This document shows positions 1 through 11,170 of a stretch of DNA of 11,170 nucleotides, piece by piece. Positions within the stretch are counted from its first letter, which is position 1. Each line of letters opens with the position of its first letter. The notes beneath the pieces were generated by a model, which ran no database searches, was not told the DNA's origin, and was given only the letters and a program-made list of their open reading frames with translations. The position numbers and the translations under genes were made by a program. Origin of the DNA: a virus; the UHGV virus genome UHGV-1780727. One strand, written 5' to 3'.

Positions 1-43
1 TTAGCTGCAGTCTCGTGGGCTCGGAGATGTGTATAAGAGACAG
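1..43. other. Non-biological library adapter: Nextera/Tn5 read-2 adapter with mosaic end (GTCTCGTGGGCTCGGAGATGTGTATAAGAGACAG at 10..43), preceded by 9 nt of unknown origin
   Basis: Exact 34-nt match to the Nextera transposase adapter including the 19-bp mosaic end AGATGTGTATAAGAGACAG at 25..43; its reverse complement sits at the other contig end. Confidence 0.9.
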
Positions 44-659
44 GTGCACGTACGATCCGGTCTCCGCTTTCATTGACCGAATTAAATTCCTCACCGCGTA
101 ACACACCCTGTGCCAGCGCCTGGCTGAACTGGGTGATCACCGAGCCCGCCTCTGCCGTACTGGCACCGGAGATTTTCAGCCCTGTCGAAATGGCCTCCGT
201 CACCTTCAGCACATCATCAGCACTGTAACCATATTCACGCATTGAGGCGGCTGAGCGGGCAAACAGGGCCGCATTATCCGAAAATGCGGTGCCTGTCCGC
301 TGGCTGATATCCATCAGCACTTTCTGTGATGACGAAAATTCATCAGATGACTGCGACGCCTGTTTCAGACGGGCATTCACGGAACTCCACTCATCCGCCA
401 GTGAAATCAGGTGTCCGGTGGCAAAGGCACCGGCAAATGCGCCAGCCATTCCGACAGCAGAACCGCGAATTTCCGTCAACTGGCTGTTCAGTTCTGCCAG
501 GGCACGTCGCTGCTCCCGGGCTGCCGCAGCGGCCTGACGCCCGCCATTCTGCAGGGTCCGGTAATATTCACTGCCCATACGGGAAGCCCGCTGGATCTCC
601 GACTGGAATGACTGCGAATTTGCCGAAATTTTGATAATCAGTTCACGTAACGTCGCCAT
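44..659 (-). CDS. Phage tail tape measure protein, N-terminal part only (rest lies beyond the contig end; reading frame runs into the adapter)
   Basis: ATG at 659..657 preceded by GGAGA-type RBS. Translation MATLRELIIKISANSQ...GLKISGASTAEAGSVITQFSQALAQGVLRGEEFNS carries the conserved tape-measure core motif. Lies directly downstream of the G/G-T chaperone pair, the canonical position. Confidence 0.8.
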
Positions 660-677
660 TCACCTTTCTCCGGGCGT

Positions 678-698
678 AAAAAAACCGCCTCAGCGGTT
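678..698 (-). terminator. Intrinsic-terminator-like hairpin plus T-run on the minus strand, between the G-T stop and the tape measure RBS
   Basis: Minus-strand stem AACCGC/GCGGTT with 4-nt loop (683..698) followed by a T7 run (plus-strand A-run 678..684), then GGAGA RBS and ATG at 659. Confidence 0.55.
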
Positions 699-706
699 CT
701 CATCAT

Positions 707-1021
707 TCATGACTGTGCTGCAAAGCTCAGCGCGTCTTCCAGCGCCGCAAACGGATCCACCTCCGGCTTATCCTCATCCTCGCCCCAGCAGAGCATGGCG
801 TCCTTCAGTGCAACATTCATCCCCTGTGCCCCGAAAACCGCTTTCACGATCTGTGCATTACGGATATCCCCGCGCTCATCACCCAGCGGGGACACCCTGT
901 CAAACTCCATCCACATCATCGCCTCGCTCGCACTCAGGCTGTGCCGCAGTTCGGATAAGGTGCGCCCCAGACGGAGCGCAAGTCGCATCAGAAAGCGAAT
1001 TTCCGGGCGGGCTACTTTTTT
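707..1021 (-). CDS. Frameshift extension of the tail assembly chaperone (T-like segment of a G-T fusion), reached by -1 slippage from the G frame
   Basis: The ORF in the -1 frame relative to G continues in-frame from the slippery heptamer (KKVARPEIRFLMRLALRLGRT...) and ends at TGA 707..709. G / G-T arrangement sits between major tail and tape measure genes. Confidence 0.65.
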   Translation of the reverse strand, partial: KKVARPEIRFLMRLALRLGRTLSELRHSLSASEAMMWMEFDRVSPLGDERGDIRNAQIVKAVFGAQGMNVALKDAMLCWGEDEDKPEVDPFAALEDALSFAAQS

Positions 1022-1386
1022 CTGGCCGACTCTGCATCAGCGATCAGTTCCAGTGCCTGACGCAGCAACCGGGCATGTACCGGACCATAGACGGCCAGCA
1101 CCTGCTCACGGTCGTCCGGAGTGAACACCCGTTGCAGGTCAGTATCACACAGGACATCGCAGAACAGCGTCACATCCGCTTCCAGGTTACGGCGGGTTTT
1201 CGCCACCACCGACAGGGTATCGTCATCCTCTCCATCACCATTGAGCACTTCCTGCCACAGATACCAGGCCTCTGCCGAAGGCTCCCGCAGCACCACGCTG
1301 ACATTTCTCCATTCCGGCACCTTCACCGTTTTATGACGGAACCCCGACAGTCTGGCCAGCGCCAGTGTTTTCAGATCTTTTGCCAT
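1012..1386 (-). CDS. Tail assembly chaperone (lambda gpG-like), 124 aa
   Basis: ATG at 1386 immediately after the major tail protein stop; small acidic protein ending ...ESARKK with a slippery site at its 3' end; position between major tail and tape measure genes. Confidence 0.75.
   Translation of the reverse strand: MAKDLKTLALARLSGFRHKTVKVPEWRNVSVVLREPSAEAWYLWQEVLNGDGEDDDTLSVVAKTRRNLEADVTLFCDVLCDTDLQRVFTPDDREQVLAVYGPVHARLLRQALELIADAESARKK
1015..1021 (-). other. Programmed -1 ribosomal frameshift slippery heptamer A_AAA_AAG (minus strand)
   Basis: Minus-strand sequence ...GCC AGA AAA AAG TAG; the heptamer A AAA AAG is the classic dnaX-type slippery motif, and the -1 frame continues open for about 100 codons. 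Confidence 0.7.
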
Positions 1387-9938: not shown

Positions 9939-10498
9939 CCGTTGCCCTCATTATCATTATTCACCACCAGGCGGGGTGGTGGTGGCACCGCAAAACGGTT
10001 AGCCGCTTTTTTCGCCGCGTCACCTTTTGCCGATTTTTTACCGGCATCCCCTTTTTTATGGTGCGTGAACTGCGCCAGCTTATAAGCCGCATCCAGCGCC
10101 AGCCTGGGGTCGGTATTAATGTTCTCCACCAGAAGACGCCCCATCGCTTTCACCGGATCGGGAAGACCATCCTCCATATATTCAATACCAGGAGACATCA
10201 CCGCGGACGGTGGCATCTCCGGATTGTTTTCGTCCGGCTGTGGTATTGCAGCCGCCTCACGGCGACGGGGTTTATCCTCCTGCTCTGATTTTTTCTGCCG
10301 GTAAACAGGAACCTCATCCACCTCCACCGTCTCGCATTGTTTACGGGCTATAAACGCAAGCACCTCCGGATCTTTTGCCAGCTGCGAGCCTTTAACCCTG
10401 GCGGTCTTCGCCGAATAACCGGCGGCAATGGCTGACGCTGTTTTGTTTTTCCCGGACATGAGCGCCAGCGCAAATTTTCGTTTTTGCGTTGTCAGCAC
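9935..10498 (-). CDS. Phage terminase small subunit (P27-family-like)
   Basis: 187 aa; GTG start at 10498 with GGAGGAGG RBS just upstream; N-terminus MLTTQKRKFALALMSGKNKTASAIAAGYSAKTARVKGSQLAKDPEV resembles P27-type small terminases; basic Lys/Ala-rich C-terminus. Confidence 0.8.
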   Translation of the reverse strand: MLTTQKRKFALALMSGKNKTASAIAAGYSAKTARVKGSQLAKDPEVLAFIARKQCETVEVDEVPVYRQKKSEQEDKPRRREAAAIPQPDENNPEMPPSAVMSPGIEYMEDGLPDPVKAMGRLLVENINTDPRLALDAAYKLAQFTHHKKGDAGKKSAKGDAAKKAANRFAVPPPPRLVVNNDNEGNG

Positions 10499-10570
10499 AG
10501 CCTCCTCCCGGGTCCAGAACGCACTCAGCCGGGTATGGTTCAGCCCATTTTTCCCGGCGTCTCATGCCGC

Positions 10571-10696
10571 AAATGTTAACTGCTGCCTGGTTAACATTTG
10601 CTGAAAAAGCCAGTTAACATTTTTTCCGCACAACAAACTGAATAATAAAGATAAAAACCGCAAAAATGCCCGGACAGCCAGTTAACATGTTAACTG
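10571..10696. promoter_or_regulatory. Cluster of five GTTAAC-core repeats (GTTAACAT / ATGTTAAC units, including an 11-bp inverted repeat) in the HNH-TerS intergenic region; candidate terminase recognition (cosB/pac-like) sites
   Basis: GTTAAC at 10575, 10590, 10613, 10681, 10689; CAAATGTTAAC (10571..10580) and GTTAACATTTG (10590..10600) form inverted arms 9 bp apart; GCCAGTTAACAT occurs twice (10608 and 10677); an AT-rich block lies between. Confidence 0.5.
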
Positions 10697-10788
10697 CCCT
10701 GAAACGGGAATTTTTTCTCTGCGTGAGAGGGGGGGCGGTGTCCAAAGCGATCTTTTTTTACGCCGGATGATACCCCCCCCGGGTCGGG

Positions 10789-11136
10789 TTACAGTCCGGT
10801 GATGTCGTCCGCTCTGCCACTACCTCCGGACACCTCCGGCAGCGTCGGGTCTGGCATACCACTCGCCGCTTCACGAGCAGACTTTTGTCGATGGCATTCG
10901 GTACAGAGCGTCCAGAGATTCGTCTCCTCATTACCACCACCGAACTGAAGTGCAATTCGGTGATCGAGTTCACTGTCACAGAGGTCAACCACACGACCAC
11001 AGAGACAGCACTGCCCGGCATCCCTGAGCCAGATATGACGCTTGAGGGAAACACGTGCACTGCCACTGACACGACGCTGTTCACCCTTCAGAATATTCAC
11101 CCGTCGGGTATTCAGTGTTTTGATTCTGCTCTGGAG
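10789..11136 (-). CDS. HNH endonuclease, phage packaging-associated (5' end truncated at the contig/adapter junction)
   Basis: Translation ...CCLCGRVVDLCDSELDHRIALQFGGGNEETNLWTLCTECHRQKS contains an HNH motif with flanking cysteine pairs; lies next to the cos/terminase region as in HK97-like phages. The apparent MYKRQ N-terminus is translated adapter. Confidence 0.85.
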   Translation of the reverse strand, partial: LQSRIKTLNTRRVNILKGEQRRVSGSARVSLKRHIWLRDAGQCCLCGRVVDLCDSELDHRIALQFGGGNEETNLWTLCTECHRQKSAREAASGMPDPTLPEVSGGSGRADDITGL

Positions 11137-11170
11137 CTGTCTCTTATACACATCTCCGAGCCCACGAGAC
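11137..11170. other. Non-biological library adapter: reverse complement of the Nextera/Tn5 read-2 adapter (CTGTCTCTTATACACATCTCCGAGCCCACGAGAC)
   Basis: Exact 34-nt match to the reverse complement of the adapter found at 10..43. Confidence 0.9.

Follow-up and report, generated by a model that had tools for sequence, protein, structure and literature searches.

The contig UHGV-1780727, an 11,170-nt sequence catalogued as a virus genome (hereafter the window, meaning the whole stretch of DNA that was analysed), begins and ends with the same sequence in opposite orientation. Such matching inverted ends raise the question of whether they are the termini of a mobile element with phage genes as its cargo or a trace of how the DNA was prepared for sequencing. 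Here, we show that they are leftover Nextera (Tn5) adapter, a technical artefact rather than biology, identify the prophage DNA that lies between them, and trace the false gene ends that the adapter creates.

The 34-mer GTCTCGTGGGCTCGGAGATGTGTATAAGAGACAG matches the window exactly at positions 10–43 on the plus strand and 11,137–11,170 on the minus strand, as the initial annotation had claimed in describing one adapter in inverted orientation, and it had 0 matches in 200 dinucleotide-preserving shuffles, with none expected by chance. This sequence is the Tn5ME-B Nextera oligo (Illumina FC-121-1031) published in PMC4248319; the adapter comparison that the initial annotation had proposed returned 100% identity over 34 nt at both ends, and against Tn5ME-B with index N728 we found no sequence difference. 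A repeat finder likewise reported the pair as a perfect 34-nt inverted repeat (I1). Its longer 39-nt version (10–48 / 11,132–11,170) was rejected, as the extra 5 nt agree at only 3 of 5 positions and reflect chance.

The initial annotation was right about 10–43 and drew the left side too short. The synthetic left stretch occupies 1–43 in full, and the missed bases 1–9 consist of T followed by TAGCTGCA. These fit the primer layout, in which CAAGCAGAAGACGGCATACGAGAT is followed by an 8-nt index and then by GTCTCGTGGGCTCGG..., and they correspond to the last base of P7 and to index N728, whose primer is ...CGAGAT-TAGCTGCA-... with the index read as TGCAGCTA (PMC7589761). On the right, the contig runs to the final constant base of the adapter and no further, so that the index expected next in the Nextera primer is absent; the adapter is thus 43 nt long on the left and 34 nt on the right. 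The synthetic parts of the window are as follows.

1–1, plus strand: last base (T) of the P7 flow-cell primer, ...CGAGAT (primer layout).
2–9, plus strand: Nextera i7 index N728, TAGCTGCA in oligo orientation, read as TGCAGCTA (sequence and primer listing).
10–24, plus strand: Read-2 sequencing-primer part of Tn5ME-B, GTCTCGTGGGCTCGG (exact match; oligo in PMC4248319).
25–43, plus strand: 19-nt synthetic Tn5 mosaic end, AGATGTGTATAAGAGACAG, with its 3' end adjoining the insert (exact match).
11,137–11,155, minus strand: second 19-nt synthetic Tn5 mosaic end, again with its 3' end adjoining the insert (exact match).
11,156–11,170, minus strand: second Read-2 sequencing-primer part of Tn5ME-B (exact match).

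The orientation of these parts is that of a tagmentation product. With the plus-strand copy on the left and the minus-strand copy on the right, AGACAG-3' lies next to the insert in both, and on each strand the adapter sits immediately 5' of genuine prophage DNA, just as in Nextera products, where the 3' end of the 19-nt mosaic end abuts the insert. The mosaic end has two sites only in the window, even with three mismatches allowed, and a search within the window at two to three mismatches found no internal copies of the mosaic end or of the Read-1 (A) adapter that would signal chimeric joins.

Between the adapters lies a genuine insert (44–11,136, unstranded; identified by BLAST) that carries the late (packaging, head and tail) genes of a lambdoid Stx-converting E. 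coli prophage. Positions 44–11,129 form one collinear BLAST piece that is 99.6% identical to E. coli O26:H11 FWSEC0001, from which the insert differs by 47 substitutions and two single-base gaps, both intergenic; the differences (~50 substitutions) cluster at 7,000–7,500 and 10,500–11,000. With lambdoid Stx1a/Stx2-converting prophages of Shiga-toxin-producing E. coli (STEC), such as that of FWSEC0001 at 3.63–3.65 Mb or phage Stx1a_1602 (LC744182), the insert 44–11,136 is collinear and 99.4–99.6% identical. At least 80% of the window was found in 1,011 of 5,426 complete E. coli genomes and also in 30 phage records, mostly of Stx-converting phages.

Both edges of the insert can be placed to the base. 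Homologous sequence occurs in 1,263 E. coli and 127 phage records, and in all 30 of the matches listed it starts exactly at base 44. On the right, ungapped identity to two closer relatives of the HNH gene (L002 and L132) reaches 11,136, with bases 11,130–11,136 matching both; some BLAST matches end instead at 11,140, an end point we rejected because a one-base gap there lines up a TGT that matches by chance, and the true junction is 11,136|11,137. More than 1,000 genomes carry the same DNA uninterrupted past both junctions. Outward of base 44 the reference continues as ...CTGGCTGCGGGTATGGGCGTGGCC... and outward of base 11,136 as ...TGTACGAAGCTCAGCCAT..., and both flanks are unrelated to the adapter. 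The two junctions fall in the middle of genes, 43|44 in the tape measure gene and 11,136|11,137 in the HNH endonuclease gene.

The gene order of the insert is HNH, TerS, TerL, a protease-capsid fusion, a 73-aa ORF, portal and a 353-aa repeat protein, followed by four head-tail joining genes, the major tail subunit, a chaperone, protein T and the tape measure. Long-tailed Stx prophages share this late-gene order from HNH through tape measure; compared with their module, the window is missing the first 6 codons of HNH and the last 875 codons of the tape measure. Apart from these two terminal genes, the insert contains the following.

707–988, minus strand: tail assembly protein T (Pfam Phage_tail_T; RefSeq annotation).
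1,012–1,386, minus strand: tail assembly chaperone (Pfam Phage_TAC_1, E = 2.3e-61; RefSeq annotation).
1,392–2,108, minus strand: major tail subunit with a C-terminal Ig-like domain (RefSeq annotation; Pfam).
2,174–3,645, minus strand: four head-tail joining genes (ORFs; RefSeq annotation of the 99.6% identical prophage; precomputed Pfam), given singly in the next four lines.
2,174–2,518, minus strand: tail completion gp17.
2,515–2,961, minus strand: HK97 gp10-like.
2,958–3,308, minus strand: head closure.
3,319–3,645, minus strand: head-tail connector.
3,642–4,703, minus strand: 353-aa ORF without a Pfam hit, with a 162-nt unit repeated three times in tandem at 4,096–4,581 (ORF; repeat finder).
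4,700–6,064, minus strand: portal protein (Pfam Phage_portal, E = 2.3e-79).
6,010–6,231, minus strand: 73-aa ORF between protease-capsid and portal, overlapping the 5' end of the portal ORF (ORF list).
6,276–8,213, minus strand: fused prohead protease and major capsid protein, 645 aa (Pfam Peptidase_S78 and Phage_capsid).
8,277–9,938, minus strand: terminase large subunit (RefSeq annotation; precomputed Pfam).
9,935–10,498, minus strand: terminase small subunit (Pfam Terminase_2; RefSeq annotation).

The only products without a Pfam hit are those of 73 and 353 aa, and both are conserved in the same late-gene module; the shorter is a hypothetical protein in RefSeq, and eight independent assemblies have a 73-aa gene called at its position. 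The stretch 44–11,136 is unremarkable Shiga-toxin prophage DNA of E. coli, beginning with the HNH endonuclease gene and ending early in the tape measure gene.

At each junction the reading frame of a genuine gene runs on into adapter, involving three stretches of DNA.

44–659, minus strand: 5' fragment of the tape measure gene, 205 of 1,080 codons plus the first base of codon 206 (Pfam TMP_3, E = 1.3e-36).
10,789–11,136, minus strand: genuine part of the HNH endonuclease gene, codons 7–121 plus stop, with the first 6 codons missing (Pfam HNH).
11,137–11,151, minus strand: false HNH start made from adapter, GTG TAT AAG AGA CAG = (M)YKRQ (ORF list and translation).

The adapter gives the HNH ORF an in-frame GTG start and the tape measure fragment a false tail of 14 residues. 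The HNH ORF was listed at 10,789–11,151 on the minus strand with its GTG start and appears complete at 120 aa, where the true protein has 121 aa. Residues 7–121 are identical to WP_000829193.1 of E. coli O111:H11 8D, in which the N-terminus reads MAELRT|LQSRIK; the window has (V/M)YKRQLQSRIK... and its relatives differ from it there, which bears out the earlier claim that MYKRQ is translated adapter. The chimeric 120-aa protein, in its M-start version, had no entry in a public gene-position index, and there is thus no sign that this false protein has spread. On the other side, the tape measure frame runs through adapter from 43 to 3 as PVSYTHLRAHETAA, in which the P codon is chimeric, and leaves the left end as ...GDRIVRAPVSYTHLRAHETAA; the reference protein goes on ...RIVRALAAGMGVARKDL and the window reads ...RIVRAPVSYTHL. 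The initial annotation had also taken this tail for translated adapter, correctly except for the final N of its ...HETAAN, where only two bases (AA) follow the last full codon. Its more general statement that ORFs touching the ends are chimeric agrees with the relatives, whose ORFs continue differently at exactly both junctions.

We then looked for the same adapter in other records. In IMG/VR, at least 120 unrelated contigs contain the 34-mer, and 123 of the 124 copies listed there lie within 80 nt of a contig end with AGACAG-3' directed inward. Among the matches listed, an 8-nt index and the 3' end of P7 precede the adapter in 98 of 101 adapter-bearing IMG/VR contig ends; index N728 itself is present on at least three IMG/VR contig ends, and at least four IMG/VR contigs resemble the window in having the B adapter at both ends. 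The 34-mer is also present in 43 GenBank phage records, RefSeq entries included, from at least nine host genera (hosts include Bacillus, Streptococcus, Listeria, Staphylococcus, Pseudomonas, Acinetobacter, Salmonella and E. coli), and it underlies annotated CDSs in some of them. Patterns spanning either junction of the window had no match in IMG/VR, and the left-junction pattern had none in JGI metagenome contigs or GTDB representative genomes. In the literature, searches for the adapter-encoded peptides THLRAHET, LLYTSPSPRD, KQKTAYEI and LIHISEPTR found none of them, and a search on adapter contamination of assemblies gave incidental mentions only.

Taken as a whole, we consider it highly probable that the contig comes from an Illumina Nextera (Tn5 tagmentation) library with i7 index N728 whose reads were left untrimmed of adapter. 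Where inserts are short, Read 1 would run past the far end of the insert and into adapter, giving insert, then CTGTCTCTTATACACATCTCCGAGCCCACGAGAC, then index, then P7. The assembler would then extend the contig at each end with such read-through reads, and an adapter 'tip' may persist where the genuine continuation is poorly covered or ambiguous. Survival of a tip is plausible here because the prophage module has several near-identical copies in STEC genomes. Since one oligo caps both ends, the 34-nt inverted repeat is a by-product. The unequal adapter lengths (43 and 34 nt) fit variable read-through rather than a single fixed k-mer limit, and the insert differs from its best reference by almost only substitutions, as a short-read consensus would give.

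A copy-number check of the junctions used 400-nt segments inside and outside each one in 5,426 E. coli genomes. At the right junction the outside segment was found in 4,169 genomes, at a maximum of 12 places, and the inside segment in 1,252 genomes, at a maximum of 7; at the left junction the two segments were indistinguishable, with a median of 1 and a maximum of 7 places. These counts are at most suggestive of a contig that breaks at repeat boundaries, and the case is weak on the left, where the inside and outside statistics agree.

The adapter geometry also suits a different origin, in which the window is a single 11.1-kb B-B tagmentation molecule, amplified with the N728 primer and sequenced in full by long reads or linked reads, directly or after their assembly. 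A complete B-B product would have Tn5ME-B at both 5' ends, as the window does, and both ends of the window carry the same adapter type, with no A adapter found within it. However, an amplicon made with index primers would have the index and P7 base at both ends, and the window has them at one. Its sequence is also consensus-like and free of indel noise, with two single-base gaps in 11 kb, both intergenic, and ordinary Illumina-derived IMG/VR assemblies show B-B, A-B and single-adapter ends as well. We regard a B-B molecule as improbable. If it were the true origin, the contig would report directly where Tn5 had inserted, at two sites, in one prophage DNA molecule; the ends would still be synthetic, and nothing new would follow for the phage.

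Far less probable still, to a vanishing degree, is a real mobile element, Tn5/IS50-like or of another kind, that has these ends as its terminal inverted repeats and the phage genes as its cargo, a reading that the initial annotation had warned against. The 34-nt inverted repeat is indeed perfect at both ends, and its inner 19 nt derive from Tn5 end sequences. Yet this 19-mer is the synthetic mosaic end, a laboratory hybrid of the natural Tn5 outside and inside ends, rather than a natural end: it matches the Tn5/IS50 outside end at 16 of 19 bases, with 3 mismatches, and the natural inside end has no match in the window within 3 mismatches. Seen from the DNA between them, these ends also point the opposite way to those of natural Tn5/IS50, as the termini (CTGTCTC... 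/ ...GAGACAG) face inward, not outward; the cleaved terminus ...AGACAG-3' faces the phage DNA, which is therefore target and not cargo. Moreover, the outer 15 nt, the index and the P7 base are commercial primer sequence and the only bases beyond the mosaic ends, no transposase (by Pfam and annotation) or IS50 sequence lies between the ends, where all gene-sized stretches are phage late genes, and the uninterrupted copies in more than 1,000 genomes cross both junctions. Polarity and identity to synthetic oligos already rule this reading out.

Of equally negligible probability are two engineered, mosaic-ended transposons (EZ-Tn5-type mutagenesis) inserted 11 kb apart in the prophage with the contig ending inside them: one insertion on each side of the phage DNA would give mosaic ends of this polarity, but what lies outside is a Nextera read-2 primer site, i7 index and P7 with no resistance marker or origin, the same arrangement is found on at least 120 unrelated contigs, and bases 1–24 and 11,156–11,170 already rule it out.

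Left untrimmed, the ends of this contig lead to three false results: a mobile element with 34-nt terminal inverted repeats (43-nt with flanks), an HNH endonuclease that is seemingly complete at 120 aa and starts MYKRQ instead of MAELRT, and a tape measure fragment whose C-terminal 14 residues are false. Findings that touch 1–43 or 11,137–11,170 should be discarded, which leaves 44–11,136 as usable sequence; the sequence for trimming the adapter from reads is CTGTCTCTTATACACATCT. The value of the result is in quality control only, and it concerns a widespread problem, as the same adapter recurs in IMG/VR (at least 120 contigs) and in GenBank (43 phage records).

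We found GTCTCGTGGGCTCGGAGATGTGTATAAGAGACAG at 10–43 on the plus strand and its reverse complement at 11137–11170 by direct reading of both ends, and a pattern search identified exactly two copies of this 34-mer in the window, each with 0 mismatches, compared with matches in 0/200 dinucleotide-preserving shuffles. The same exact sequence thus stands inverted at the two ends, as the initial annotation had claimed. The window 34-mer is identical to the published Tn5ME-B oligonucleotide (Illumina FC-121-1031, 5'-GTCTCGTGGGCTCGGAGATGTGTATAAGAGACAG-3'; Picelli et al. 2014, PMC4248319), the Nextera read-2 transposase adapter, and a literature text search located it, letter for letter, in 3,533 papers. 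Among the window's inverted repeats listed by the repeat finder, this pair (I1) is the longest; an extension of I1 to 39 nt was rejected as chance, as only 3 of the 5 added bases pair. The inner 19-mer AGATGTGTATAAGAGACAG has no further copy anywhere in the window with up to 3 mismatches allowed, and the Read-1 adapter stem TCGTCGGCAGCGTC is absent from the window.

The full primer is laid out as CAAGCAGAAGACGGCATACGAGAT-NNNNNNNN-GTCTCGTGGGCTCGGAGATGTGTATAAGAGACAG-insert (PMC6265951), and the N728 index primer contains ...CGAGAT-TAGCTGCA-..., giving the index read TGCAGCTA (PMC7589761). Window bases 1–9 are T-TAGCTGCA and therefore correspond to the last P7 base followed by index N728, which extends the left synthetic stretch to 1–43. 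The adapter annotated at 10–43 is accordingly exact in sequence but nine bases too short in extent.

Used whole as a megablast query, the window matched 1,257 of 5,426 complete E. coli genomes. The best, the O26:H11 FWSEC0001 prophage, aligned as a single piece over 44–11129 at 99.6% identity, and the best phage-record matches were Stx1a/Stx2-converting phages (98–99.5% identity). Base 44 is the start of every alignment among the matches listed, E. coli and phage alike, and base-by-base comparison showed that the reference to its left reads ...CCGCAGCCA, which bears no relation to the adapter. At the right end, phage Stx1a_1602 and E. coli O111:H11 8D come closest, the second of them with 100% identity over window 10737–11136; both read ...CTCTGGAG|TGTACGAAGCTCAGCCAT whereas the window reads ...CTCTGGAG|CTGTCTCTTATAC. 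The comparison at both ends therefore sets the junctions at 43|44 and 11136|11137. An end at 11140 in some BLAST alignments was rejected, being a one-base gap that aligns a chance TGT. Between the junctions, 47 substitutions and two single-base gaps separate the insert from the O26 prophage, the gaps both being intergenic (10780 and 10783), and this comparison indicates a clean consensus free of internal chimeric joins.

Both terminal reading frames cross these junctions. The tape measure gene (minus strand, start at 659, MATLRELIIK...) matches a 1080-aa reference protein over 205 residues, to ...GDRIVRA, after which the window encodes PVSYTHLRAHETAA where the reference has LAAGMGVARKDL...; the P codon at the junction is half phage, half adapter. 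The fragment does end in translated adapter, as annotated, except for its final N: two bases (AA) are left past the last full codon, and they would give N only with the next adapter base (T) present. The HNH ORF (10789–11151, minus strand) encodes 120 aa from a GTG start in the ORF listing, with the translation (M)YKRQLQSRIKTLNTRRV..., whereas the RefSeq HNH protein of the right-end-identical relative (121 aa) begins MAELRTLQSRIKTLNTRRV...; the two are identical from L7 on. The adapter therefore swaps six real HNH codons for five false ones and provides an in-frame start codon, confirming that the apparent start MYKRQ is adapter. This chimera is more misleading than that of the tape measure because the ORF seems complete and its length is nearly right. 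The public gene index has no entry for the exact chimeric HNH protein (M-start version).

The same oligonucleotide terminates unrelated contigs. With the 43-nt left end as query, 43 of 50,697 GenBank phage records matched, from hosts including Bacillus, Streptococcus, Listeria, Staphylococcus, Paenibacillus, Pseudomonas, Acinetobacter, Salmonella and E. coli, most within ~100 nt of a record end. None of these matches reaches into the 8-nt index past the base adjoining the adapter, which fits expectation because the index is sample-specific. An exact scan of IMG/VR found the 34-mer in at least 120 contigs; 123 of 124 listed copies lie at most 80 nt from an end with AGACAG-3' facing into the contig, and an 8-nt index and the exact P7 3' end precede the adapter in 98 of the 101 listed copies with enough outside sequence. 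Index TAGCTGCA is present among the listed contigs, and several other indices on them match N7xx primers of PMC7589761. Four listed contigs carry the B adapter at both ends and three have one A end and one B end; there is accordingly nothing unusual about a B-B contig. Patterns spanning the window's own junctions gave no match, either for both junctions in IMG/VR or for the left one in JGI metagenome contigs and GTDB representative genomes. By every testable criterion, the window's ends belong to the class of Nextera adapter contamination.

The sole inner copy of the 124 listed, in IMGVR_UViG_3300010234_000504 (190,684 nt; 3701–3734 of the stretch examined), is a candidate chimeric join in a very long viral contig. 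Tn5ME-B is also embedded in deposited phage genomes, RefSeq entries included, for example:

NC_054919, 76726–76759, Tn5ME-B
LR535910, 240196–240231, Tn5ME-B
MK327945, 123962–123995, Tn5ME-B
NC_049392, 29127–29161, Tn5ME-B

In some deposited records it lies far from the ends and underlies annotated coding sequences, among them 'baseplate hub subunit and tail lysozyme', a sign of adapter insertions left uncorrected or of chimeric joins.

At both ends of the window, library oligonucleotide adjoins prophage DNA with the polarity that tagmentation gives. The ends probably arose as tips where Read 1 ran through short inserts into the far adapter (insert - CTGTCTCTTATACACATCTCCGAGCCCACGAGAC - TGCAGCTA - A...), and these tips probably outlived assembly because the reads were untrimmed and the genuine continuation was not followed. 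The contig could plausibly have broken here through the multi-copy nature of the late-gene module in STEC genomes. The end segments of the insert occur in up to 7 places per genome and the region just outside the right end in up to 12; the left junction shows no difference in copy number between inside and outside, and the multi-copy reason therefore stays conjecture. In most public assemblies with this region, the contig that carries it is below 5 kb in length, though short contigs are typical of that collection generally. The main rival, in which one physical B-B molecule was sequenced end to end with long reads, is disfavoured by an index on one end only and by a sequence free of indel noise (two single-base gaps against the O26 prophage); if true, it would leave the verdict of artefactual ends the same.

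The initial caution against reading the ends as a mobile element's terminal inverted repeats is upheld by sequence, polarity, outer bases, content and uninterrupted relatives. Natural Tn5 ends were rejected: the 19-mer, which is the synthetic mosaic end, departs from the natural outside end at 3 positions, and the inside end has no match in the window within 3 mismatches. The outer tips of a transposon read CTGTCTC... towards its interior; the window has the reverse polarity, ...GAGACAG-3' adjoining phage DNA on both sides, and the phage DNA is therefore the target between two adapter-joining events, not cargo. Beyond the mosaic ends, every base comes from commercial primer, index or P7. From the HNH side, the insert encodes HNH, TerS, TerL, a fused S78 protease-capsid protein, the product of a 73-aa ORF, the portal, a repeat protein of 353 aa, four head-tail joining proteins, the major tail subunit, a tail assembly chaperone, protein T and the beginning of the tape measure protein, with no transposase among the gene products by annotation and Pfam. 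The same DNA runs on unbroken past both junctions in more than 1000 genomes. On every testable point, the ends fail as those of a natural Tn5-type element.

Within the insert, the 353-aa ORF (3642–4703, minus strand) lies just downstream of the portal gene with an ATGA overlap at 4700–4703, has no Pfam match, and carries a tandem repeat of three 162-nt (54-aa) units at 4096–4581 (100/95/62% identity). Alignment spans differ by about −161 and +159 nt in other strains, which suggests copy-number polymorphism. The exact protein occurs in 583 blocks of public assemblies. RefSeq PGAP merges this ORF and the portal ORF into one 'frameshifted portal' pseudogene in two genomes; both are intact in the window. 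The protease-capsid ORF (6276–8213, minus strand) is a single 645-aa frame with a Peptidase_S78 prohead protease domain (residues 48–151) and an HK97-type capsid domain (386–635), and its position between TerL and portal is unusual compared with lambda or HK97. A 23-nt GC hairpin with a T-run, GAACCGCTG[A/C]GGCGGTTTTTTTA on the coding minus strand, is present in two copies (96% identical) that may be internal terminators or RNA-stability elements of the late operon:

677–699, minus strand, hairpin copy 1, between tail assembly gene T and the tape measure gene
8230–8252, minus strand, hairpin copy 2, between TerL and the protease-capsid gene, flagged by the terminator scan

The HNH and TerS genes lie 290 nt apart, and this gap (10499–10788) is where the cos site would be expected by analogy with HK97-like phages; it contains the only two indels against the O26 prophage (10780, 10783), and in one public assembly, LM995611 (850–1770 of stretch L130), an IS110-family transposase is inserted there. 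Differences from the best O26:H11 match cluster, with 17 of 49 at 7000–7500 and 10 of 49 at 10500–11000, and the right-end 400 nt are 100% identical to the O111:H11 strain and not to O26:H11; judged from these alignments, this is a mosaic pattern typical of co-resident lambdoid prophages.

The adapter finding is thus a correct and useful quality-control flag, and the usable sequence is 44–11136, with the HNH gene 5'-truncated and the tape measure gene 3'-truncated. Nothing in the window is new biology; the Stx-prophage late module that forms the insert is ordinary and has already been well sampled.
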